A stretch of DNA of 64,000 bases from Somniosus microcephalus (GCA_052327205.1 CM126202.1:192014001-192078000); one strand, 5' to 3'; shown: positions 3,755 through 26,169, counted from the stretch's first letter. Program-made: numbers and translations. Notes: generated by a model from the sequence alone, not told the origin.

Positions 3755-4199
3755 TAAATAAATAAATGGAATTTAAAAAATTCTTTTAGGGCTTTTAAAA
3801 GTCTTTAAATTGCTTTAATTCTCTTTAAAACTACTTCAGATTACTCAAAATAATGTAAAAATTTTAAAAAGTTTATAAAAGTTACCAAAATCTTCAAAAA
3901 ACTTCCAAAAACCTATTTAAACTGCTGCTTTGCATGTAAAAATCCTTAGCAGCTTGACAGAAACATTGGGGGCGTGTCCAGTGAAACTGAGACCTCAAGG
4001 GGCGTGTCTCACTTACACTGCACGCTCCTGGCTTCGCGCTGGCTGCACTCCTGGGCGGCGTGACGTCATACGCTGCCCGGGAATGTGCTTTCTATTTCTG
4101 CAAGTTCAGGCGTCCCAGAAGCTGATCGGCACGAGCACGGGGTAAGTGCAAATACGGGGCTTGCACGCGCTGCAAGCCCCGTTCTGGAATTTCTGGGCC
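3755..4199. mobile_element. Partial Harbinger-type MITE (one end)
   Basis: AT-rich interior, then 'ggtaagtg...ggggcttgcacgcgctgcaagcccc...gaatttctgggcc', homologous to the reverse complement of 25432-25520. Confidence 0.7.
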
Positions 4200-4657
4200 A
4201 ATGAATCAATGTTACCCATTTTTGACAAATAAACTTTCGAACTCTTGGGCTTAGAAATTCAAGGGTTTAGCCCCGGCCGTTAAGGCCCATTTTGATGAAA
4301 AAATGGCAGCCGACTCGCTTCCGCCCGATTCCGGCAGGTCCCACAGCGGCCGCCTATTTGGCGCACAATCTGCCATTTTCGACGTCGCTGCTTCTTTTAA
4401 CGCCCTCTCCTAATCACGACCAGCTGACCAAGTGTTCAGAAGCAGGAAGGAGCCCCCAGCAGCGCTATTTAATGGGGTCATCAACAACTTGCAGCTGACT
4501 TGCTATTTCAGTTTTGCTGCCTCTGTCTAAGTTTATGCAACTGTTTGGAGCTTTCTAAAGTTGTTTAAAGTTGCTGAGGTCACAGGGAGTGTTGCTGCAA
4601 GTGGAGAATGCCTTGCTTTTCATTTAAAGGCTTCTGCTCACACCACTTGCTCACAGT

Positions 4658-5469
4658 CATGGGGGCTCTACTTGTAGTGCTCCTTGCACACGAGAATGAT
4701 AGGGAGATGGAACAGATGCAGCGAAGAAGAGGATAAGATGCTCGCAGAGGTGGAAGGGCAGGAGGACTCTCAGCAGGAGGCCTCACCCACCTAGGATCTT
4801 CCGAGAGCACTTCTCCTACCTGCATTTAAGCCAGGAGCAGTGTATTAGGAGGCTCCGCATCACCAAGGAGGTGGTCGCAGAACTCACGTGGCTTTGCGGG
4901 CACCGTATACCAATCAAGAGATGTTCAGTAACCGCAAAGGCTGCCACTCACTTAATGTATAGTTGTGCGAGCAGGCCCAGCGCATCATGATGGTGAATGC
5001 CCGGTACCCTGGCAGCAGTCATGATGCCTTCATCCTGCGCCGGTCTGGTGTCTCAGCAATCTTCCAGCTATCGCGTCAAACCTGAGGGTAGCTGCTCGGA
5101 GATAAGGGCTAGCCGCTATGCACCTGGCTGATGATTCCCCTCCGCAACCCCACCACTCGTGGCCTGCACTCATATAATGACAGCCATGCTGCCACGAGGA
5201 ACATCATCGAGCAAACCATTGGGGTGCTCAAGCAATGGTTCCGCTGCCTTCACCGCTTGGGAGGAGCCCTCCAGTACTCGCCGGAGTGGGTGTCCCATTT
5301 CCTGGTGGTCTGCTGCATCCTCCACAACTTGGCCATCATGAGGACGCAGCCCTTGCCACCTGGGCTTCTGGGACCACCTCAGGAGAAGGGCAGGAGGAGG
5401 CAGGCAGCAAATCCCCGTTTCGGATGGCTGTCCATGAGCACCTCGTCAGACGCCGATTCCAGTGAATGA
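4658..5469 (+). pseudogene. Harbinger (HARBI1-like) DDE transposase pseudogene with internal deletion
   Basis: Motifs HVALRAP, NRKGCHSLNV, ARYPGSSHDAFIL, LLGDKG, YNDSHAATRNIIEQTIGVLKQWFRCL, CCILHN. Several stops. The sequence jumps from 'KEVVAEL' directly to 'HVALRAP' at ~4885. Confidence 0.9.
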
Positions 5470-5617: not shown

Positions 5618-7463
5618 CTAATCACCCTTAGTGTCTGTCTTTCGTGTGCTTTTTCCTACTCTAGTGCTCCTACGAAGTGCTCCCCCAGCGGCTGCAGCAA
5701 GTCTGGTGGAAGGCTGCTGACTTTCAGTGTTGGAGACTGCAGATGGCCTTGCAAGACAACCTCGAGCAGCTCTGGACCTAAAAGGCCCGGCTGTAGACTG
5801 CACAATCTCGGCATGGGCGGCAGCAGCCTGGGCTGGCAGGCTGGCTGACAGGCAGCAGCAAGGGCACTAGTCGAGTGGCAGTGGCAGAAGTAGGAATGCT
5901 GTCATTCTGAGAGGACAGTAGGTTCTTGCTCCATGGATCCACTTCCACTGTCCCGGGGTGGTGCCTCAGCAGTCCTCGTAATCTGTTCAAGGACAGATTG
6001 CTGGCCTGCTGTGACGCTTTGCAAGCCCCTTTCGATACTCATAAACCCAGCGACGATGGCAGCAGTCTGAGTTTCCACGGCAGCAGTGAGACATTGGGTC
6101 GCTTCCACCTGTGCTGCAATGAAAGTTGCAAGATCGCCCATCACACCCGCCAGCATATTTGGGTCCACAAGGTCTCTCCTGGAAATTATGGGTTCCAAGC
6201 TCTGCGCAAAGCCCCGTGCAATGTTAATGCTGGACTCCTCCATGCTCCTTGACACTGACAGGAGGTTCTCTGGCAGGCTTGCCATTGCACCTAGCATTTC
6301 CGTGTACCTGCCCATCACCCTTTTTCTGAAGGCCGTCCCATCGAGGTCATCATCTGAGTCTTGTGGAGCAGAACTCGTGCACGAACTCCTCCTCCGGGGA
6401 GCTGGCACATGAGCTACCCTTTCCCCCTGACCTGGTTGCAGCCCACTCGTGCCTGCTGACTCACCACGTGCAGATCCTGCCTCTATACTACCCTCTAAAG
6501 TCCACGCAGTGTCATTTTCTGAGCTGGTGTCTGCAAGTGTCATATGCAGTGCCGGTGTCTCTTCTTCTACTCCATCAGTGTCTTCCTCATGTCCAGGGAC
6601 AGGCTGGGCTGCTGGCAGGTCATCGGTATCTGAAAGCAGAAAGGCGCAAGGGTTGAGTTTTGGTGACGGGAGCGGGGGAGAGCAAGATATCCATGCATAC
6701 ACCATCAGCAGCTTGTAAGTGAGAAGAGATTGTGGGATGAGGGGTAAGTGGGATGTGAGAAGAAGGATTAAGTATGATCATACCATCATCACCAGCAATG
6801 CTTTCAACTTTTCTGTTCACCACAGCCCCTCCAATTATTTGAAGCACTGATTCCTCCAGGTCGGTTAGGTTCTCAATCCTTGCATGGCCGCCTCCCGTCT
6901 GCTGTTGCTCGTGCCAGTTGTGCGCCACCTTGACCTGCAAGAGAAAGGGAAGTGTGTCAGTGAGTGTAGTGCAATGTGTTTAGGTGATGTGCCTGTCATG
7001 GTTGAATAGCTGGCAGTGTGTGCAAGGTGTGAGATGTTGGTGTGAGTGTTGCAGCAGTGGTAAGTGTGTGAGGGTGAATTGAAGCTATGATTGTGAGGTA
7101 TGAGTGGTGATAGGTAGAGATTGTTGGTAGATGAGTGATGGGGGCTGTGGTGCAGTGAGCAGTGTGTGAGGCCTGTGGTGCAGATGGTGAGATATGGCAT
7201 TTGCTGAAGCCTTCACTCACCTTGACCAGCCATGTGAGGTCATTAAACTTTTCGCGGCACTGGATCCAGGTCCTGGGTACAACACTCGTCGCTGTGACGG
7301 ATTGCGCTATCTCCTCCCAGATCTTTCTGCTGATTACCTTTGAAGGCCTCTTGCTCCCATGCAGGTAAAGGACATCCCATTGACGTTGGACCCCCAGGAC
7401 CAAGGCCTCCAGTGAGAAACGTCTCAGCCTTTCTCTAGGTATTGAGCCATGGCTTCTTTTCAC
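5618..7463 (-). pseudogene. Harbinger Myb/SANT-like DNA-binding protein gene, 3 exons (~7463-7221, 6934-6784, 6629-5618), frameshifted near the C-terminus
   Basis: Exon 1 'RFSLEALV...WEEIAQSV...RTWIQCREKFNDL' is a Myb/SANT (MSANTD/NAIF1-like) domain. Exon 2 'QQQTGGG...LTDLEE'. GT/AG boundaries in phases 0 and 1. C-terminal 'LRRSTR' lies in a shifted frame. Confidence 0.85.
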
Positions 7464-8726: not shown

Positions 8727-9369
8727 TTTAGGTCATTATGACCTTGTTAACAGTCACTTAAACTGTATTTTGAGCTCACCTTTAAATTTTACAAGGTCGC
8801 CCACAGGGTCTACGCTGCTCGGAGATCACGTCAGGTAAGCAGGTCGGGAGTTGTGTTACCATGAAATCATCTCTACTTGATAGCTGCAATTGTGCTATAA
8901 AAGCTTCCATCTCACAGCTGTTCACTTTCCAAGCTCAGAAGCTGTTGCTTCCTGCATTTGGAAGACAGATCGAGCTTTATGCAGGTTGCAAGTGTTTGGA
9001 GTAAACTCTCTGGCCTAGAAATTGGGTATAGCCCCGCTTGAGGCATTAGAACTGGCGCTGCGCAAAGTTTATAGCCAGATGAAACTTATCGCTGCCTGGC
9101 GAGATATTGGGTTGCATCGCCCCCAAAGGGGATTGAGGTGCTAACTCAGACGTTGCACGGGGCTCCTAAGGCGCAAAAGTTCAGGCGCTACCCAATATTG
9201 TCGCGGACGGGCGCAGCGCAGGTGATCTCAATTACCGGAAACCACGAGACTTCCAGGCGCCGGCCGGCTCTTAAAGGGGTGGGTCAGTCAACCTGAACTG
9301 CTACACTCAACGCCCGGTAGGCCTCAGAATCGGCGCTCGCCCTTCTCTGGCGCAAGAAACTTGGTGAGG

Positions 9370-11466
9370 ATGGAGAAGGTGAGACAGAGAGCAGAGCGCT
9401 TCAGCACTGAGGCTCTGGACCACTTGGTGTCTGCAGTTGAGCGCCGTCGAGATGTTCTGTATCCTGACAATGGCAAGAGGCCGAATCAAAAGGCTTACCG
9501 GCGATCTTGGAGGGAGGTTTCTCAGAGGGTCAACTCCAACAGCTTGGCGACCAGGACCCCTGTTCAGTGCAGGAAGAAATTCAACGCCTCACTCGGGTCG
9601 TTAGGGTGAGTGTTGGTTATGCAAACTTCTGATTCCCTCCATCTGCACCTAACTTCGAGGACCCTGTTGCTATGATGCCCCAATGGCCATCTGTCAGCAA
9701 GCACCCATGGCCCTTTCTGGGCACACACTTGGACATTTCTCTCAAGGCCACATGTAAGGGCTCTTGCACCATGGGGGGCATGAGATGATCTCTCAAGGCA
9801 TCATGTAAGGGCTCTTGCACCATGGGGGGCATGAGATGATCTCTCAAGGCATCATGTTACAGAACTTCCCCTTCTTTCCCCTGCAGTCCAAGCTGGCGAC
9901 GATGCGAAAGGAGCAGCGTCGAACCGGTGGCGGACCTCCACAAGTGGTCACTCTCACGGATCTCGAGGAGAGAGTGCACCAGATTCTTGGAGGACGTCTG
10001 TCTGGTCCTGTTACCACTGCAGCTGCCGACCCCATTCTCGACAGCGATGGTAAGGTTCTCACCTTTTGCAACTGTCTCCTTCCACTTGGTCCCCCCGCCA
10101 GCATGCTTCCTCAGTGTGCCACAATCTGCCATGCCTTTCCGCCAACCTGTCCTTTTGCTAAAGCCACTCTTCCACCTCCCTGCTTTCAGATGATGCATCA
10201 CCAACTGGGGCTCCACGCCCTGAAGCTGCCAGTGCCAGTGCCTCCGGAGGTGAGGATCAGGAGGAAACCGGACCATCTGCTCCAATCTTAGAGGAGCATA
10301 CACATGTACAGACTGGGGATAGTAGTTCCCTGGAGGGGAGCGGGGGGGGCTCTGATGATCAGGCAGTTGCCGGACCAAGCGGCATGCAGCAACGCAAGGG
10401 GGGTAGGCAAGTTCGGCCACCGTCTCCCCGGAGGGCAAGGCAGGTAGTGATGACTGCTGCACCGAGTGCAGAGGAGGTGCGTCGCCTGGCTGAAATGAGC
10501 ACCCAGGCCCGGCTCAGGCACACTGAGCTGATGGCTGCAGTGGGGAGGATGCCTCAGTCAATAGATACACTGGCAAAGAGTGTGTTGGACTTCGGGGCAA
10601 CAATGGAGAGGAGTTTCCAGGGCTTCGGGGCAACAATGGACAGGACTCTCCAGGGCTTCGGGGCAACAATGGAGAGGTCTGTCGAGGGCTTTGGACCAAC
10701 AATGGAGAGGACTGTCCAGGGCTTCGAGGCCGCTATGGAAAGGACTGTTCAGGGCTTTGGACAATCCCTGGAAAGGTCTGTCCAGGGCTTGTCCGAGGCA
10801 GTGGAGTGGTCAGCACCGGCCTTGTCCGAAGCAATGGAAAGAACTGTCCAGGGCTTGTCTGAGGCAGTGGAGTGGTCAGCACCGGCCTTGTCCGAAGCAA
10901 TGGAAAGAACTGTCCAGGGCTTCTCCGGAGCACTGGCACCTGGCTCACAGGTCCTCACTGCTGCCACGCAGTCACTTGCCGGCCTCGTCCACACCCAGAT
11001 TGAGGCAACGCGAACTCTCACTGCAGCCACCCTATCTGCATCAGCTAGGATCACCCCAGGCCCTTCCAGTCCCATACAAGGCCAGGAATCAGTGGAGCAT
11101 GCGATTGTGGTGGATGAGCCGAGCCGGTCCCCTCAGAGAGCCAGTGTGTCATCCGACAATGGTGCAGGTGTCCTCTCTCGGCAGGTGACCATTCCACATG
11201 CCAGCGCTGGCACGTCTGCAGTGCAGCTGCCACCACCTGCAGTGCACACTGCTTCCAGCCATGCTCAGATCAAGCATCCTGCATCCGCACCCTCCAAGCC
11301 CAGAGGTCGGCCAGCCCGTCCCTCAGGGGCTTCTGCGCTTCCAGACAGTCAGCAGGCGTCCCCCAGCCTTCACCCCGCCACAGGGGTTCAATTACGTAGG
11401 AGCAGCAGGGAGGGAAGGGGCCGAGCGCGAAAGAGAAGTCGTTCTCCATCAAGGGGCCAGCAGTAG
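9370..11466 (+). CDS. Harbinger Myb/SANT-like protein, 3 exons (9370-9605, 9887-10049, 10190-11466), ~558 aa if one missing base in exon 1 is restored
   Basis: Exon 1 'RFSTEALDHLVSAVERRRDVLY...WREVSQRVN...QCRKKFN'. Donors gtgagt (9606) and gtaagg (10050); acceptors at 9886 and 10189. Exon 3 is open from 10190 to the stop at 11466. Exon 1 is 236 nt, one base short of phase 0 ('aacgcctc' vs expected 'aacgacctc', KFNDL). Confidence 0.85.
9738..9857. repeat. 51-bp tandem repeat (~2.4 copies) in intron 1 of the Myb gene
   Basis: Unit starts 'tctctcaaggc' at 9738, 9789 and 9840. Confidence 0.9.
10588..10917 (+). repeat. Coding 33-bp tandem repeat x10 (11-aa units)
   Basis: DFGATMERSFQ/GFGATMDRTLQ/GFGATMERSVE/GFGPTMERTVQ/GFEAAMERTVQ/GFGQSLERSVQ/GLSEAVEWSAP/ALSEAMERTVQ/GLSEAVEWSAP/ALSEAMERTVQ. 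Confidence 0.95.
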
Positions 11467-11743
11467 AGGGAGGTCCTGAGACGTTTCTTTGGCCAAAATC
11501 AAGGAGACCCTCACCTGTTGGAATTGTTGGAAATAGTTTGTTCAGTTTGGCGGCTTTGCCGAAGAGTTTACTGTTATTTTGTTAGTTATGGTTTCTGTTG
11601 ACATGACGTTGTTTTGCTGTAATGAAAGACTTTTGTGACAATAAAGAGAAGTTTAAATGTGCTATGGTGTACGTGAATAATTACAGTGATGCTGGCCTTC
11701 AGATGCTTTCAAGCATCCAAAGTGCGCAGCAGTTAAGACACTC

Positions 11744-12344
11744 ATCATTCCGCCAGAGGGGCCTCGAGACGACTCCTCATGAGCCAGTGACGGATGGCCC
11801 TTCCACTTTCAGGAGCCCTTCCATCTTCCTCCTCCTGATCCTCCTCCTCCTCGTTCGCATGCTCCTCCTCCTCCTCCTCCTCCGCCTGCTTCTCCAGGGT
11901 CAGAGGGAAGGTGATGAATTGACGCCTTCGCCTATAAAGGGCAGCTGTAACTTGCCGGATGCAGCAGTGGACTGCAACCTGAGAGATATTCGCGATGTCC
12001 CCAATGGCTCACTGAAAGGATCCGTTGCCATAAAAATTGAGGCCAACAGTCAGTTTAGCAGCCACCGACAGAGAGGTCATGCACCGTTGACGCGGCTGCA
12101 GATCCTCAGTAAGCAGGTGGCACAAGCTCAGTAACAACGTCCATCCCGATTCGGAGCCTTTGCACACACTGCTCCTCCGACATGTCAAGGTATGACCCCT
12201 AAAGACCCTCGCAGCATACCCTCGGATTGGGCAACCTCCATTGCCCCTCCTCCTTCTGGCCAATCCCGGCCCTCTCTCCCGCCGCCTTTCTGCCCCTTCA
12301 TAGTGTTCGGCCAGGAGCCCGCCGCCCTCCAAAGCATCTCCCAT
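11744..12344 (-). pseudogene. Harbinger transposase remnant: N-terminal/HTH part fused to the acidic C-terminal tail; DDE domain deleted
   Basis: 'RVFR..YLDMSEEQC..RLR', 'LCHLLTEDLQP...LSVAAKLTVGLNFYGNGSFQ*AIGDIANISQ..VHCCIRQVT..LY', then 'FITFPLTLEKQAE' runs directly into poly-Glu at ~11881. Confidence 0.85.
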
Positions 12345-13711
12345 TCCGATGCCAGTTGGTCAAAAGGCTGCTAGGTCTAGTGCTCCAACTGCTCCGGACA
12401 GGTTTGAGGGTCCCAAGTACTCTAATGCTAAAATCCAAAAACTCTGCTCCACAGTAGCTCCCCAACTCTCTCCACCAACGATCGCAATGAACAGGCCAAG
12501 TGGCTGAAGCTTCTATACTAGAGCTGTCCCCTTTAAATAGCGCCCCCCCCCCGACTCCGAGAAGGGCCTGCTAACGCTCCTTCGAACTGTCACTAATAGC
12601 GCTAGGCGTTAAGGCTCCGGGCGCCACCCAATATCCGCTCAGGCGCCCCTAAAAGGCATTGCACCATGAAATGACGTCATTATGTGCTTGCGCTCGCGGG
12701 CGCGCGCAAACACTTAGCGCAGGCGTTAAATGTATAGTCAATATGGGAGTTGTCATTATCTTCATTGCGCCCGCCCCAACATTAGGTCACGCCCCAATTC
12801 TCGGTCTCTTTAGGCGCTAACCGCTGGCGCAAACAACCGAATTTCTAGGCCTCTATCTAGTGTCACTTCATTGGAACAACCTCTCTCACCATTGACAGAT
12901 CGCTTCTGTCATCTCAAGTTTACCTGCCATCTATTACATCAGCGTCGGTGCCCTTGAAACTATCTCACCTTGGTCCTCAGAATCCCACCATGACCAGCCC
13001 CAACACCAGCAGCACCAGGCACACCAGCAGCACCAACAACAACACCAACCTTCTCCGCAATCAACTGCTGCTGCACAGGACACAGGGCATCAGCACTCGA
13101 CCACATTGCAGCCCGGAAGGCCATAGCCAGATTTACTTCACTTGAGGCAGTACACCCTAGCTGCCACATGATGTGCCAGGTTAGCACCACCCCACACCAA
13201 CACCATAAAGCATCCCTACAATGCCCAAGTCATTCCTTTCACACTCACCACCATTGCGGGGAGTACCGTTTTGTCTCACCATTCACTGCAACTCACTAAG
13301 CCACTTCCAAAAGTGCACACAGATCTGTCCGAGAATGCAAAGTATTGAAAATAAAGATTTCAATGTTTGACAGCACATTAACAGAAACTTTACATGAACA
13401 TTGGCTAAAACACTCAAGTGCCTACCCTTGTGTGTTGTTAGTTGGTATGATTGGACTAGGATGAGGGTGAGTGTGAGGGGTGGCTAGTGAGATGGGGAAG
13501 TGAAAATGCAGATATAGAGGGATGGGTGGAGGTGCAAGGAAAGTTGGTGTGAGTAATAATGTGCAGGAGTAGGGTAGGGAAAGCAGAATGATGGGGATGT
13601 GATGAGTGGCACAGCAGGATGAGGTTGAGTGTGGCTTTGCAGTAACGTTTCGTGATCTACTGAGACCATTGAAAGGTTTGCACCACTGCAGCCTGGTCCT
13701 CCTGACCACAT

Positions 13712-13744
13712 ATATAATTGCAAAATACTGCAGATGCTGGAAAT
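13712..13744. mobile_element. Very short Penelope-like fragment with 10-bp TSD
   Basis: 'gcaaaatactgcagatgctggaaat' (same text as 8606-8630), flanked by 'ctgaccacat' at 13702-13711 and 13745-13754. Confidence 0.7.
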
Positions 13745-14184
13745 CTGACCACATCCCTGCTTGTGTCCTCCTGTGCAATGTGCAGATGACTCAGTGATCT
13801 CATGGGGAGGTCTCTTCCGCCAATTGGAAGGGAAGAGAACCTCCCTGTGTTCTGTGACTCCCTCATCAGACCCGCTTCCTTCAATTGGTTGGCAAACGCG
13901 CTGGGTGGCCCAATCAACGTAAAATCACTTTGGACAGCGGGCTAGAGCCAGCAGCGAGGTCGGGACCCGCCACCGACCCCGGCCGCACTGGACCCGCCGA
14001 GGTAGGAGAAGTCACGGCCAATATGTCAGATCACGATTCATATCCTTCAATCTTGATTGGTCAAATGTGTACTGCGATGAAACCATGTTATGATTTTCTA
14101 TATGTCAACAGGTTATTTCAGCAACTTTAATTGGGTAAAACTTACTTTTTGTAGTATAATTTATATTAATATATATTTAATTTT

Positions 14185-18244: not shown

Positions 18245-21180
18245 TCATGTCCAAATTCCTGCCCGCTCCCCGTAACCCTTAATTCCCTTTACTTCTAGGA
18301 AACTGTCTATTTCTGTTTTAAATTTATGTAATGATGTAGCTTCTACAGCTTTTTGGGGCAGCATATTCCATGGACCTACCACCCTCTGAGTGAAGTAGTT
18401 CCTCCTCATCTCAGTTTTGAAAGAGCAGCCCCTTATTCTAAGACGATGCCCCCTAGTTCTAGTTTCACCCATCATCGGGAACATCCTCCCCGCATCCACC
18501 CGATCCAACCCCTTCACAATAAGATCGCCTCTCATTCTTCTGAACTCCAATGAGTAGAGTCCCAATCTACTCAACCTCTCCTCATATGTCCATCCCCTCA
18601 TCCCCGGGATTAACCGAGTGAACCTTCTTTGTACTGACTCGAGAGCAAGTATGTCCTTTCTTAAGTATGGACACCAAAACTGTACGCAGTATTCCAGGTG
18701 CGGTCTCACCAATACCTTGTACAACTGAAGCAATACCTCCCTATTTTTATATTCTATCCCCCTAGCAATGAAAGCCAACATTCCATTGGCCTTCTTAATC
18801 ACTTGCTGCACCTGCATACTAACCTTTTGAGTTTCGTGCACCAGGACCCCCAGATCCCTTTGTACTTCAGTACTTTCCAGTTTCTTGCCATTAAGATAAT
18901 AACTTGCTCTACAGTTTTTCCTGCCAAAGTGCATAACCTCACACTTTCCAGTATTGTATTCCATCTGCCAAATCTCTGCCCACTTACTTCGCCTGTCTAT
19001 GTCCCCTTGCAGGTTTTTTATGTCCTCCTCACTCACTACTTTCCCTCCCATCTTAGTATCATCTGCAAACTTTGATATGTTACACTCGGTCCCCTCCAAA
19101 TCGTTAATATAGATTGTAAAGAGTTGGGGACCTAGCACTGACCCCTGCAGAACACCACTAGTTACTGATTGCCAGTCTGAGAATGAACCATTTATCCCAA
19201 CTCTCTGCCTTCTGTTAGATAGCCAATCCTCTATCCATGCCAGAATATTACCCCCAATCCCGTGATTTTTTATCTTAAGCAATAATCTTTTGTGTGGCAC
19301 CTTGTCAAATGCCTTTTGGAAGTCTAAATACACTACGTCCACTGGTTCCCCTTTATCCACCCTATATGTTACTTCCTCAAAGAACTCCAGCAAATTTGTC
19401 AAACATGACTTCCCCTTCATAAAACCATGCTGACTTTGTCCTATTATATTATGATTATCCAAATGTCCTGTTACTGTCTCCTTAATAATGGACTCCAAAA
19501 TTTTACCTACCACAGATGTTAGGCTAACCGGTCTATAGTTTCCAGCCTTCTGTCTACTGCCCTTTTTAAATAAGGGTGTTACATTAGCAGTTTTCCAGTC
19601 TGCCGGGACCTTTGCTGAGTCCAGGGAGTTTTGGAAAATTATTCCCAATGCATCCACAATCCCTACCGCCACTTCCCTCAAGACCCTAGGATGTAAGCCA
19701 TCAGGTCCAGGTGATTTATCCGCCTTGAGTCCCATTATTTTACCGAGTACCACTTCCTTAGTGATTTTGATCATGTTTAGCTCCTCCCCCCCCCCATAGC
19801 CCCCTGTTTGTCCAGTGTTGGGATATTCTTAGTGTCCTCTACTGTAAAGAGTGATACAAAATATTCATTCAGTGTTTTTGCCATCTCCATATTTCCCACC
19901 ATTAATTTCCCGGTCTCATCCTCTAAGGGACCAACATTTACTTTAGCCACCCTTTTTCTTTTTATATAACGATAAAAACTCTTACTATCTGTTTTTATAT
20001 TTTTTGCTAATTTACTTTCATAATCTATCTTCCCTTTCTTAATCAATCTTTTTGTTATTTTTTGCTGTCTTTTAAAGTTTTCCCAATCCTCTATCCTCCC
20101 ACTAGATTTGGCTACCTTATATGTCCTTGTTTTTAGTCGAATACTATCCTTAATTTCTTTACTTAGCCACGGATGGCTGTCTTTTCTTTTACACCCTTTT
20201 CTTCTCAGTGGAATATATTTTTTTTGGAAGTTGTAAAATAACTCCTTAAATGTACACCACTGATCATGTATCGTCTTACCCTTTAATCTATTTTCCCAAT
20301 CCACTCTACTCAATTCCGCTCTCATACCTTCATAGTCTCCTTTATTCAAGCTTAGCACGCTTGTTTGAGATCCAACCTTCTCACCCTCTAATTGAATATG
20401 GAATTCAACCATATTATGGTCACTCATTCCAAGGGGATCCTTTACTCGGACATTTTTAATTAATCCTGTCTCGTTACACAGGACCAGATCTAAGGTTGCT
20501 TGCCCCCTGGTCGGTTCAGTTACATACTGCTCAAGAAACCCATCCCTAATACACTCAATGAACTCATTCTCAAGGCAGCCCTGCCCAATTTGATTTGTCC
20601 AATTAATATGATAGTTAAAATCTCCCATAATTATAGATGTTCCCTTATTACAAGCCTCAACTATTTCCTGATTGATACTCCGTCCAACAGAGTTACAACT
20701 GTTCGGAGGCCTATAGACTACACCCACTAGTGTTTTTTTCCCCTTATTATTCCTTACCTCCACCCAAACTGTTTCATTATCCTGATCTTTTGACCCAGTA
20801 TCATTTCTCTGTATTACAGTGATTCCTTCCTTTATTAACATAGCCATCCCACCTCCCCTTCCTTCCTGCCTGTCCTTCCTGATCGTTAAATAACCTGGTA
20901 TGTTTAATTCCCAGGCATTGTCACTCTGCAGCCATGTTTCTGTAATGGCCACAAGATCATACCCATATGTAGTTATTTGTGCCATTAACTCGTCTATTTT
21001 GTTACGAATGCTACGTGCATTCAGATAGAGAACTTTCAAATATGTTTTGTGACACTTAGTTCCTGCTTTTGCCCTTTTTATTACTTTACCTTTTACTCCA
21101 TACCTTCTGCCCCTTCCTGACACGCTCTGGTTTTTAATTTCCCCACTGCTACCTAAGTCTATGACCTTCTCTGTTGTCAT
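18245..21180 (-). CDS. CR1 ORF2 (APE endonuclease plus reverse transcriptase), split by one frameshift in a C10 run (19786-19795)
   Basis: EN motifs YLNARSI, AITETWL, VYRPP, MGDFN, LDLV, SDH. RT motifs KSPGPDG, NYRPVSLTS, QHGF, YLDFQKAFDKV, QGSVLGP, FADDT. Confidence 0.95.
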
Positions 21181-21220
21181 TTTTATTATTTGCTCTCTAG
21201 GAACCTCCCCCCCCCACTAG

Positions 21221-22174
21221 TTAGTTTAAAGCCCTCTCTGCAGCCCTAGTTATATGATCCGCCAGGACTCTAGTCCCAGCACTGGCCAAGTGAAGCCCGT
21301 CCCAACGGAACAGCTCCCTCCTGCCCCAGTACTGGTGCCAGTGTCCCAGGAAGCAAAACCCATTTCTCCCACACCAGTCTTTGAACCACGCATTTAACTC
21401 TCTAATTTTATTTGTCCTAGCCAAATTCGCTCGTGGCTCAGGTAATAATCCAGAGATTATTACCCTTGAGGTTCTGTTTTTTAATTTGACCCCTAGCTGT
21501 TCATACTCTTTTAACAGAACCGGCTTCCTAGTCCTATCTACGTCGTTTGTACCAACATGGACCACGACAACTAGATCCACCCCCTCCCACTGCAAGTTTC
21601 TTTCCAGCCCAGAGGAGATGTCCTTAACCCTGGCACTGGGTAGGCAACACAGCCTTCGGGACTCTCGCTCTCAGCTGCAGAGAACTCTATCTATCCCCCT
21701 AATAATACTATCCCCTAGCACTACAACATTTCTATTTACTCCCCCCTCTTGAATGGCCCCCCGTTCCACGGTGCTGTGGCCAGGTTGCTCATCCTCCCCG
21801 CAGTCCCTGCTCCTGTCCCCACAGGGAGTAAGAACCTCGAACCTGTTGGAAAAGAGCAAGGGCTGCGGCTCCTCCAGCTCTACCTCCTGGATCCCCGTAC
21901 CTGCCTCACTCGTAGTCACACCATCCTGTCCCTGACCATGGGCTACATCTGAATTAATTAACTTCATAGGTGTGACCACCTCCTGATACACAGAGTCCAG
22001 GTACTTCTCCCCCTCCCTGATGTGTCGCAGTGTCTGAAGCTCAGACTCCAGCTCATCAACACAGAGCTGGAGTTCCTGTAGCAGCAGACACTTGTCACAG
22101 GCGTAATCACCGTGAGCCTCAATGGGGTTCACCGGCTCCCACATCTCGCAACAGTAACACATCACCTGCTCCAT
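21221..22174 (-). CDS. CR1 ORF1 (zinc finger, coiled coil, SGNH esterase) with one in-frame TGA at 21671-21673
   Basis: CxxCxMW...CDKC zinc finger; LQELQLCVDELESELQTL coiled coil; 'NRFEVL', 'VLGDSIIRGID', 'VHVGTND', 'DGLHL'. The two track ORFs share a frame (579 nt apart). Confidence 0.92.
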
Positions 22175-22397: not shown

Positions 22398-22875
22398 CTC
22401 ACACTTACCCAAACTCACAGCACTCTTTGATGACTCGCACTCAGTTGCTCGCACTAGGACTGGTCTTTTTATACTGTTTGTTTGTTTACAGCCAAATGAG
22501 TCACCCCTGCTGATTGGTTAGAAAACTGGTTTCCACTGCCTGCTGTGCCATTTACTCCTACTGCAGTGTAACCTTGTTTTACTCTTCTTAAACCAACAGA
22601 ATCCCAAATATTTAACTTTTCCCCTTTACTTAAACTGCTTAAGTAATCTTATCAAGAATGATTTAAAGAGAAATAACAATTAACGAACTCTCACACTTAC
22701 CCAAACACACAGCACTCTTTGATGACTCGCACTCAGTGCTTGCGCGCACTAAGACTGGTCTTTTTATACTGTTTGTTTGTTTACAGCCAAATGAGTCACC
22801 CCCTGCTGATTGGTTAGAAAACTGGTTTCCACTGCCTGCTGTGCCAATTTACTCCTACTGCAGTGTAACCTTGTT
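22398..22875 (-). promoter_or_regulatory. Tandemly duplicated CR1 5'UTR promoter monomer (period ~295 bp)
   Basis: 22398-22577 is nearly identical to 22690-22875. On the minus strand each copy reads CCAATCA, TGACTCA, GTAAACA, TATAAAA and then a GGTAAGT donor. Confidence 0.75.
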
Positions 22876-25431: not shown

Positions 25432-26169
25432 GGCCCAGAAATTCGTGTCGGGGGCTTCCCGCGGGTGCAAGCCCCCGACCTACACTTACCTAGCACGCCG
25501 GCAGTTGAAGCCTGGGCCTGCGTGGATTTCCTGTCTGTGGCCCGGTTCAGCTCCCGGCACGCTGTGCTTGCGTGACCCAGCGGCGTACTTAGTGCGATGC
25601 GTCGGCTGGGATCACGTGAGCACTGGGCAACCAATCGGAGGATGCAAAAGAACTGTCAAACTCATGAAAACTCTGGGCGCCCAAAACAGTACTTAAATTG
25701 AAATAAAAAAAAATTTTAATCACACTATTTAAATGAACTATAAATAACTTTAAATAACTGTTTTAAACAATAAATTAAATTTTTGAAAAAAATAATTTTA
25801 TAAAAAATCGGGGCTAAAAATACACTTACCTTACTGTAAAGTCTTTAAAAATAATAAACCTGTGGAAAAAAATTCTAATTCTAATTATTAGACCACTTAC
25901 CTTTTAAAATTAAGTCCTTACGTCTGCTTTTTTAAAGTGTAAAAAGTGGAGGCCTTCACGCACGGGCAAACCTGGAAAAAAAAGGAAGTTCAACGCGCAC
26001 GCACAGACTCCTGCGCGCACGCATTCGACTTCTGAACCCCTTGGTTCAGAGGATCGGAAATGCCGGTTTCCCGCGCATGCGTAGTGCATGCAAGATTCCG
26101 GCACTTCCATCGGGTCTACGCGTGAGTACTCCGTCCGTACTCACGCGTTGGGACCCGAATTTCTGGGCC
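25432..26169. mobile_element. Complete Harbinger-type non-autonomous element
   Basis: TIRs 'ggcccagaaattcg' and 'cgaatttctgggcc'. 3-bp TSD ATT (25429-25431, 26170-26172). CpG-rich ends and AT-rich core. Confidence 0.9.

Follow-up and report, generated by a model that had tools for sequence, protein, structure and literature searches.

The window analyzed here is the whole 64,000-nucleotide stretch of Somniosus microcephalus DNA (GCA_052327205.1 CM126202.1:192014001-192078000), with positions counted from its first letter. It contains a transposon, element 2, that is a non-autonomous PIF/Harbinger element. PIF/Harbinger traits present in element 2 are short terminal inverted repeats (TIRs), a 3-bp target-site duplication (TSD) and a separate Myb/SANT gene, whereas the autonomous-element trait of having both genes intact is absent, with Myb exon 1 frameshifted and the transposase without a DDE core. 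A second Harbinger element in the window, element 1, supplies an array-less homologue for comparison. The relevant features are as follows.

9009..9011 (left) and 12852-12854 (right), no strand: 3-bp target-site duplication TCT, from the flank sequence
9012..12851, no strand: Harbinger element 2 (3840 bp), non-autonomous, with 16-bp terminal inverted repeats that are 94% complementary and TCT on both sides
9012..9027, plus strand: left terminal inverted repeat, from an inverted-repeat search
9370..9605, plus strand: Myb gene exon 1, Myb/SANT-like DNA-binding domain (PF13873, Myb_DNA-bind_5, E 6.3e-9, 36 bits against a cut-off of 21.7)
9887..10049, plus strand: Myb gene exon 2, 46% identical to P0030 residues 140-192 (E 3e-8), with AG and GT at its ends
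10190..11466, plus strand: Myb gene exon 3, open for 424 codons and aligning with relatives on both sides of the array, including a C-terminal LRRS motif
10468..10587, plus strand: helix 1, a predicted, conserved, heptad-phased amphipathic helix that leads into the array (best angle 102.2 degrees; pLDDT 84-93)
10588..10917, plus strand: the array, ten 33-bp / 11-residue units, from Tandem Repeats Finder (TRF) and a unit table, with hydrophobic positions 10, 2 and 6 corresponding to hendecad a, d and h
10786..10917, plus strand: the youngest duplication, two 66-bp blocks that each encode a Pro-bearing 22-mer, with one silent difference
10948..11052 (start approximate), plus strand: helix 2, a predicted, conserved amphipathic helix 3' of the array, with a Q-x-[EQ]-A-T anchor
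11745..12344, minus strand: transposase remnant, in a three-frame reading an N-terminal part with frameshifts and a stop followed directly by an acidic C-terminal tail, with no DDE core
12836..12851, minus strand: right terminal inverted repeat, from an inverted-repeat search
5905..6630, minus strand: exon 3 of the element 1 Myb gene, which lacks the array and serves as the homologue for comparison (BLASTP E 4e-7 and 6e-5 flanking the array)

The Myb gene was joined from three exons using splice sites that match those of relatives. Exon 1 exhibits 49% identity to protein P0030 as far as 9585, and its frameshift falls somewhere from 9586 to the splice donor at 9606. With an exon 1 of 236 nt, the unedited join of the three exons stops after 166 codons, at 10289, before the array. 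Thus, this copy cannot make the array-bearing protein as sequenced unless a base call is wrong. An earlier sequence-only reading had placed the array in a Harbinger Myb/SANT protein; the assignment stands (Myb_DNA-bind_5, E 6e-9), although that reading did not include the exon 1 frameshift. Exon 3 encodes, in order, an acidic linker, helix 1, the array, helix 2, a Pro/Ser-rich tail and a basic C-terminus. A word-index search with exon 1 against longer proteins returned 0 of 52 candidates. Intron 1 contains a 51-bp tandem duplication of 2.4 copies at 9738-9857.

The transposase remnant matches the N-terminal part of the element 1 transposase (E 5e-7 and 7e-8). The DDE piece of element 1, used as a query against element 2, found nothing, and Pfam analysis of the remnant pieces gave no transposase family, with DDE_Tnp_4 present in element 1 (E 7e-11 at 5113-5466). 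Element 1 is also broken, with its Myb exons 1 and 3 in changed frame (5640-7450, minus strand) and its transposase in pieces (4660-5469, plus strand). Retention of a DNA-binding gene after loss of the DDE transposase is described in PMC13668399 for the MADF-only Harbinger-1M_cIno of Caenorhabditis inopinata, which differs in having many copies and a fresh insertion; element 2 is one copy, its Myb gene itself is frameshifted, and no second copy of it or of the array occurs within the 64,000-nt window.

Several other elements share the window. A third, older Harbinger-like Myb gene remnant (~8850-9011 and 12855-13900, minus strand) appears to host the insertion of element 2: a six-frame reading by eye shows pieces resembling Myb exons near 13640-13850 and helical pieces flanking the insertion, which tblastn did not score. 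A Harbinger-type MITE of ~740 bp at 25432-26169 has ends like the element 2 inverted repeats and ATT on both sides, and related pieces occur at 2722-2874 and 4141-4203. A non-LTR retrotransposon at 18245-21670 (minus strand) encodes reverse transcriptase and endonuclease, with a GDSL esterase frame upstream, and is of the type studied in PMC3905857. A direct repeat of ~186 bp with 96% identity (22398-22578 and 22690-22875) is located just upstream of this LINE.

Over 10590-10936 TRF finds 10.2 copies of a 33-bp period and 2.4 copies of a 66-bp period, and when cut at 10588 the repeat resolves into ten 33-bp units with zero indels inside an open frame that spans 10162-11466. The ten units had been described as exact; their number and length hold, their sequence identity does not, with 0-17 of 33 bases differing between pairs. 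The blocks at 10786-10851 and 10852-10917 differ by only 1 of 66 bases, a silent Ser change. This confirms the proposed 66-bp duplication. The Pro-punctuated 22-mer is of limited extent: units 7 and 9 alone provide a Pro spaced by 22 residues (two of five possible 22-mers), and the one other Pro is in unit 4. Predicted hydrophobic positions were borne out: position 2 is F/L and position 6 is M/L/V in 10/10 units, and position 10 is V/F/L in 8/10, with Ala in units 7 and 9. Gly occupies position 1 in most units. There are 10 Gly and 1 Pro among the 66 residues of units 1-6, and units 7-10 contain two Pro and a Trp off the hydrophobic stripe. Overall the 110 residues of the array have a net charge of -9, no Lys, 7 Phe and 2 Trp.

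Any 33-bp tandem array yields an 11-periodic protein, so the fair null is one in which positions are permuted within the unit. The best-fitting angle of the array is 98.4 degrees, a period of 3.66 that equals 11/3, with a moment of 0.407, and the hydrophobic a, d, h (3-4-4) hendecad pattern is present at P=0.012 against within-unit permutation (P<1e-4 against a full shuffle). The 11/3 amphipathic periodicity claimed from sequence inspection is therefore supported by helical-angle analysis, and a structure prediction agrees with it. A single-sequence model draws the array as one long extended helix with an amphipathic face and a single break near unit 7, at pLDDT 73-88 for units 1-6 and 50-59 for units 7-10, a prediction to be read with the caveat that AlphaFold readily draws long helices. 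The 4-4-3 register is continuous from helix 1 through unit 6. A two-copy complex prediction of 10468-11052, run without alignment or controls, scored 0.00 in both runs and counts neither way. Searches with the array gave no Foldseek match at E<=10 using the model, no usable match in the ESM Atlas using the array region, and nothing at E<=0.001 among 8000 candidates of a word-index protein search. The +1 frame over the array DNA is also open and has a moment of 0.535 versus 0.407 in the gene frame. It was rejected as the coding frame on finding no constraint signal there and flank homology in the gene frame.

An exhaustive protein search with exon 3 returned 64 matches, four of which match outside of the array and are relatives (P0012, P0019, P0030 and P0059). 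The other 60 were set aside because flank tests and Pfam marked them as periodicity matches. Three of the relatives, P0030, P0012 and P0059, are from the sawshark Pristiophorus japonicus, and an alignment query for more relatives recovered only three that were already known. The array is absent from 5/5 relatives found (element 1, P0012, P0019, P0030 and P0059), and the best match of element 1 to an array unit is the short stretch already singled out as its equivalent. The description of the array as a lineage-specific in-frame expansion thus agrees with every relative found. Among other proteins, P0010 (162 aa) contains approximately seven 11-mers that keep the register of the array, with 35-42% identity by tblastn and no flank homology; this likeness may be chance or that of a decayed relative, and other unrelated proteins match about equally. 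P0012 (UniRef "isoform X4") is a PML-like RING/B-box/coiled-coil protein fused to Harbinger Myb exons 2-3, which may represent exon capture or a gene-model artefact.

The relatives have a layout of Myb domain, acidic linker, helix 1, short loop, helix 2 and tail. The distance from a P-x-P anchor to helix 1 is 43 residues in 6/6 proteins, and helix 1 has an angle of 101.2-102.0 degrees in the five proteins scored. The Q-x-[EQ]-A-T anchor of helix 2 is present in the array protein and 4/5 relatives, with P0019 the exception. From helix 1 to helix 2 there are 149 residues in the array protein, 55 in element 1 and 63 in the three sawshark proteins, such that the array adds 86-94 residues and takes the place of the loop between the two helices. 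The AlphaFold model of P0030 has the same organization, with a Myb domain, a disordered linker, a helix at 281-333, a low-confidence loop, a helix at 360-425 and a disordered tail; its pTM is 0.33, which makes the relative placement of these parts unreliable. P0030 has no relative among solved structures at E<=0.001 by sequence or fold, its model obtains weak Myb-like Foldseek matches alone (Sap1, TRF and Zeste, E 0.15-0.8), and it is placed among chordate Myb/SANT and NAIF1 clusters in the Atlas. Helix 2 differs in length among P0030, P0012 and P0059 by 21 and 28 residues, which are whole heptads. As read from these sequences, the helical region of the family is elastic in length quite apart from the array.

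We consider it somewhat better than an even chance that the array is a lineage-specific hendecad lengthening of the C-terminal helical protein-interaction region of a Harbinger Myb/SANT helper. The oligomerisation rod of tunable length put forward earlier is in part compatible with this, as position and residue pattern argue for a lengthened helical interaction rod; for the "tunable" part there is one array-bearing copy. The Gly and Pro content given above (10 Gly and one Pro in units 1-6, two Pro in units 7-10) would be poor for a rigid rod.

Under a neutral alternative the array would be a coding minisatellite, grown by slippage in 33-bp units within a transposon already dead or dying, with an amphipathic appearance inherited from the source helix. 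The broken state of the element 2 copy, the tandem duplication in an intron of the same Myb gene and the open, more amphipathic +1 frame are all consistent with this alternative, and the last duplication is so nearly perfect that it is uninformative on selection. Against it, differences of as many as 17/33 bases have built up between units without an indel or stop, and only in the gene frame are these changes conservative. A minimum spanning tree of the ten units, which only approximates the true duplication history, contains 48 base changes with pN/pS of 0.54 (P=0.03), a modest signal given that one antisense frame scores a similar 0.51. The 29 amino acid changes on the tree average +0.38 in BLOSUM62 score, whereas random changes average -0.66 to -0.70 (P<=0.0004); in the five remaining frames there is no shift from the respective null toward conservative change. 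The result persists with the base-change spectrum preserved (P=0.001-0.003 in 4/4 unit subsets), and no core position turned polar anywhere in the unit tree (P ~0.02). Additionally, position 9 remains Ser/Thr in 10/10 units via three kinds of codon (AGT, ACT and TCT/TCA), and the 1277 nt of exon 3 have stayed open alongside a decayed transposase (rough Poisson P of 0.02 to <0.001 under equal decay). Substitutions that are far more conservative than neutral, and only in the gene frame, indicate that the array evolved as protein, and the neutral minisatellite is in our judgment distinctly unlikely. The array seems to have diverged as a working protein in an ancestor, a history drawn from one copy. 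The inter-unit changes comprise 16 transitions and 32 transversions, which is no transition excess and is unexplained beyond selection and saturation.

Conservative change fits equally well a tolerated, self-packing spacer that stays helical, makes hairpins or a small bundle by folding at its Gly/Pro breaks and adds no function. Such a spacer would accord with replacement of a low-confidence loop, with a Gly that opens most units, with the Pro residues of units 4, 7 and 9, and with relatives that manage without the array. The model, however, is one extended helix with its single break near unit 7, and no interruption of the 4-4-3 register occurs between helix 1 and the end of unit 6, so that we regard a spacer as possible but unlikely. 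Less probable still, and in our view quite improbable, is a lipid-binding module of apolipoprotein/perilipin type acting as a tether to lipid droplets or the nuclear envelope, either for the Myb protein or for the transposition complex. What speaks for it is an 11/3 amphipathic helix of 110 residues, a Pfam Apolipoprotein match with an E value of 2e-7 and, as the top PDB sequence match, apolipoprotein A-IV at a non-significant E of 0.48. The Pfam match (PF01442) scores 31.3 bits versus a curated cut-off of 90, and at least 13 of the 64 exon 3 search matches, unrelated proteins of which five are phage tape-measure proteins, fit the same model in a tally of the best five families per protein. 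A match common to so many unrelated 11-periodic proteins follows from the periodicity. All 16 of the 18-mer windows inside the array score <=0.50 on a HeliQuest-type discriminant, for which the threshold is 0.68, and there is no Perilipin (PF03036) match at E<=1.

The charge pattern bears on the same question. In class A helices the basic residues line the boundary of the face and the acids sit in the middle of the polar face (PMC8000854), a layout that is inverted in the array, where 0/8 Arg and 12/17 Asp/Glu lie at the boundary; the net charge of -9 and lack of Lys point in the same direction. The array does have the perilipin-type trait of 11-mer repeats forming a 3-11 amphipathic helix (98.4 degrees, moment 0.41), but not the chemistry of Plin4, which is net positive with few large hydrophobics according to PMC5889406, compared with -9, 7 Phe and 2 Trp here. 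In the same study a switch to negative charge abolished droplet binding of Plin4 and added hydrophobicity rescued it, large hydrophobics boost droplet and bilayer binding, and length plus hydrophobicity can offset charge. Given that rescue, the charge only makes lipid binding less likely. A retrotransposon ORF1p esterase binds liposomes (PMC3905857). Membership in the apolipoprotein and perilipin families was ruled out by profile score and charge layout. The lipid-binding suggestion thus retains its 11/3 helix, and is weakened by a sub-cut-off Pfam match common to unrelated proteins and by inverted charges. Exchangeable apolipoproteins (A-I, A-IV and E), perilipins and synucleins resemble the array in 11-mer periodicity, 3-11 amphipathic helix, two Pro-bearing 22-mers and the sub-threshold Pfam match, and the array differs in its inverted charge layout relative to class A, in being joined to a DNA-binding domain, with a Myb domain as N-terminus, and in having been copied from a transposon heptad helix.

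Returning to a hendecad-lengthened interaction region, the end of helix 1 would have been copied in 33-bp steps, the latest as a 66-bp step, replacing the loop. Copying may have occurred by slippage or unequal recombination while the gene worked in the ancestor of the element 2 copy, and we infer that copies were retained because an 11-residue step keeps both the reading frame and the helical face. The hydrophobic stripe runs from heptad phase (~102 degrees) into hendecad phase (98.4 degrees). Candidate partners for this V/F/M stripe are helix 2, a helix of the transposase and one in another Myb subunit, and packing against any of them would give a hendecad coiled coil or bundle that is straight or has a slight right-handed twist. 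With a helix rise of ~1.5 Å per residue, this structure would be ~13-14 nm longer than in the relatives, and a longer rod may alter reach or avidity with its chemistry unchanged. By analogy the ancestor was probably a Myb-bearing derivative without its own transposase, in which form element 2 probably spread, with the sequenced copy now dead.

A bolder version of this scheme would have an amphipathic rod of adjustable length grown under selection in 11-residue steps on the Myb helper of a vertebrate DNA transposon lineage. The rod would serve as a ruler from TIR-bound Myb domains to a transposase provided in trans, or else as a membrane anchor for the transposition complex, on lipid droplets or at the nuclear envelope. 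It would constitute a convergent apolipoprotein-like repeat arising de novo from a heptad helix with its steps readable in the DNA. We give this version very little credence.

Among known systems, the closest setting is that of the Myb-like (SANT/trihelix) helpers of PIF/Harbinger elements and their domesticated descendants NAIF1, MSANTD, HDP2 and ALP2, which, like element 2, have an N-terminal Myb_DNA-bind_5 domain. The element 2 Myb gene also has the expected position, convergent with the transposase and inside TIRs flanked by a 3-bp TSD. It differs from these helpers in the array, found in none of the five relatives, and in its frameshift and a transposase without DDE core. Harbinger Myb proteins bind TIRs and import and recruit the transposase, as stated in PMC9392472, which cites Sinzelle 2008. 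The C-terminal region of HDP2, a protein derived from Harbinger Myb, is needed for binding of the transposase-derived HDP1 (PMC5339849), and it is the C-terminal helical region that would be lengthened in element 2.

The closest analogy to the array is with the length polymorphism region of mouse L1 ORF1p, the coiled coil of which gains and loses 66-bp and 42-bp repeats with dN/dS ~0.6 (PMC3600994); stutters are common in mammalian ORF1p (PMC5940361). In both cases a transposon-encoded nucleic-acid-binding helper has a helical domain that grows by in-frame tandem duplication, including 66-bp steps (PMC3600994). They differ in that ORF1p is a retrotransposon RNA chaperone and a proven trimer with heptads, whereas the array belongs to a DNA transposon, has pure 11-mers and is known from sequence alone, and no homology is claimed. 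A second comparison is with CMM2 of Arabidopsis MOM1, a nuclear silencer whose dimer has a, d, h hendecads flanked by heptads (PMC3276543). The array shares with this nuclear regulator a heptad-flanked core in which unit positions 10, 2 and 6 correspond to a, d and h (PMC3276543). CMM2 has four conserved hendecads and a solved antiparallel dimer and is not a recent tandem array; again there is no homology. A search of the open-access literature, with subscription papers and Repbase reports outside its scope, found no description of repeat expansion in a Harbinger Myb protein.

The region behind the DNA-binding domain of Harbinger Myb proteins has been poorly described and is mapped here as two putative amphipathic helices of elastic length. 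The elastic steps appear to be heptads in the sawshark relatives and hendecads in the array, which parallels the L1 ORF1p coiled coil of an unrelated element class. The array further offers a short natural case in which a heptad helix may have seeded an 11-mer repeat whose likeness to apolipoproteins comes from periodicity alone, and PF01442 matches should accordingly be read with caution. Should intact copies prove to vary in unit number, with an effect on activity, the reasons for length variation in the helical domains of transposon helper proteins could be tested directly.
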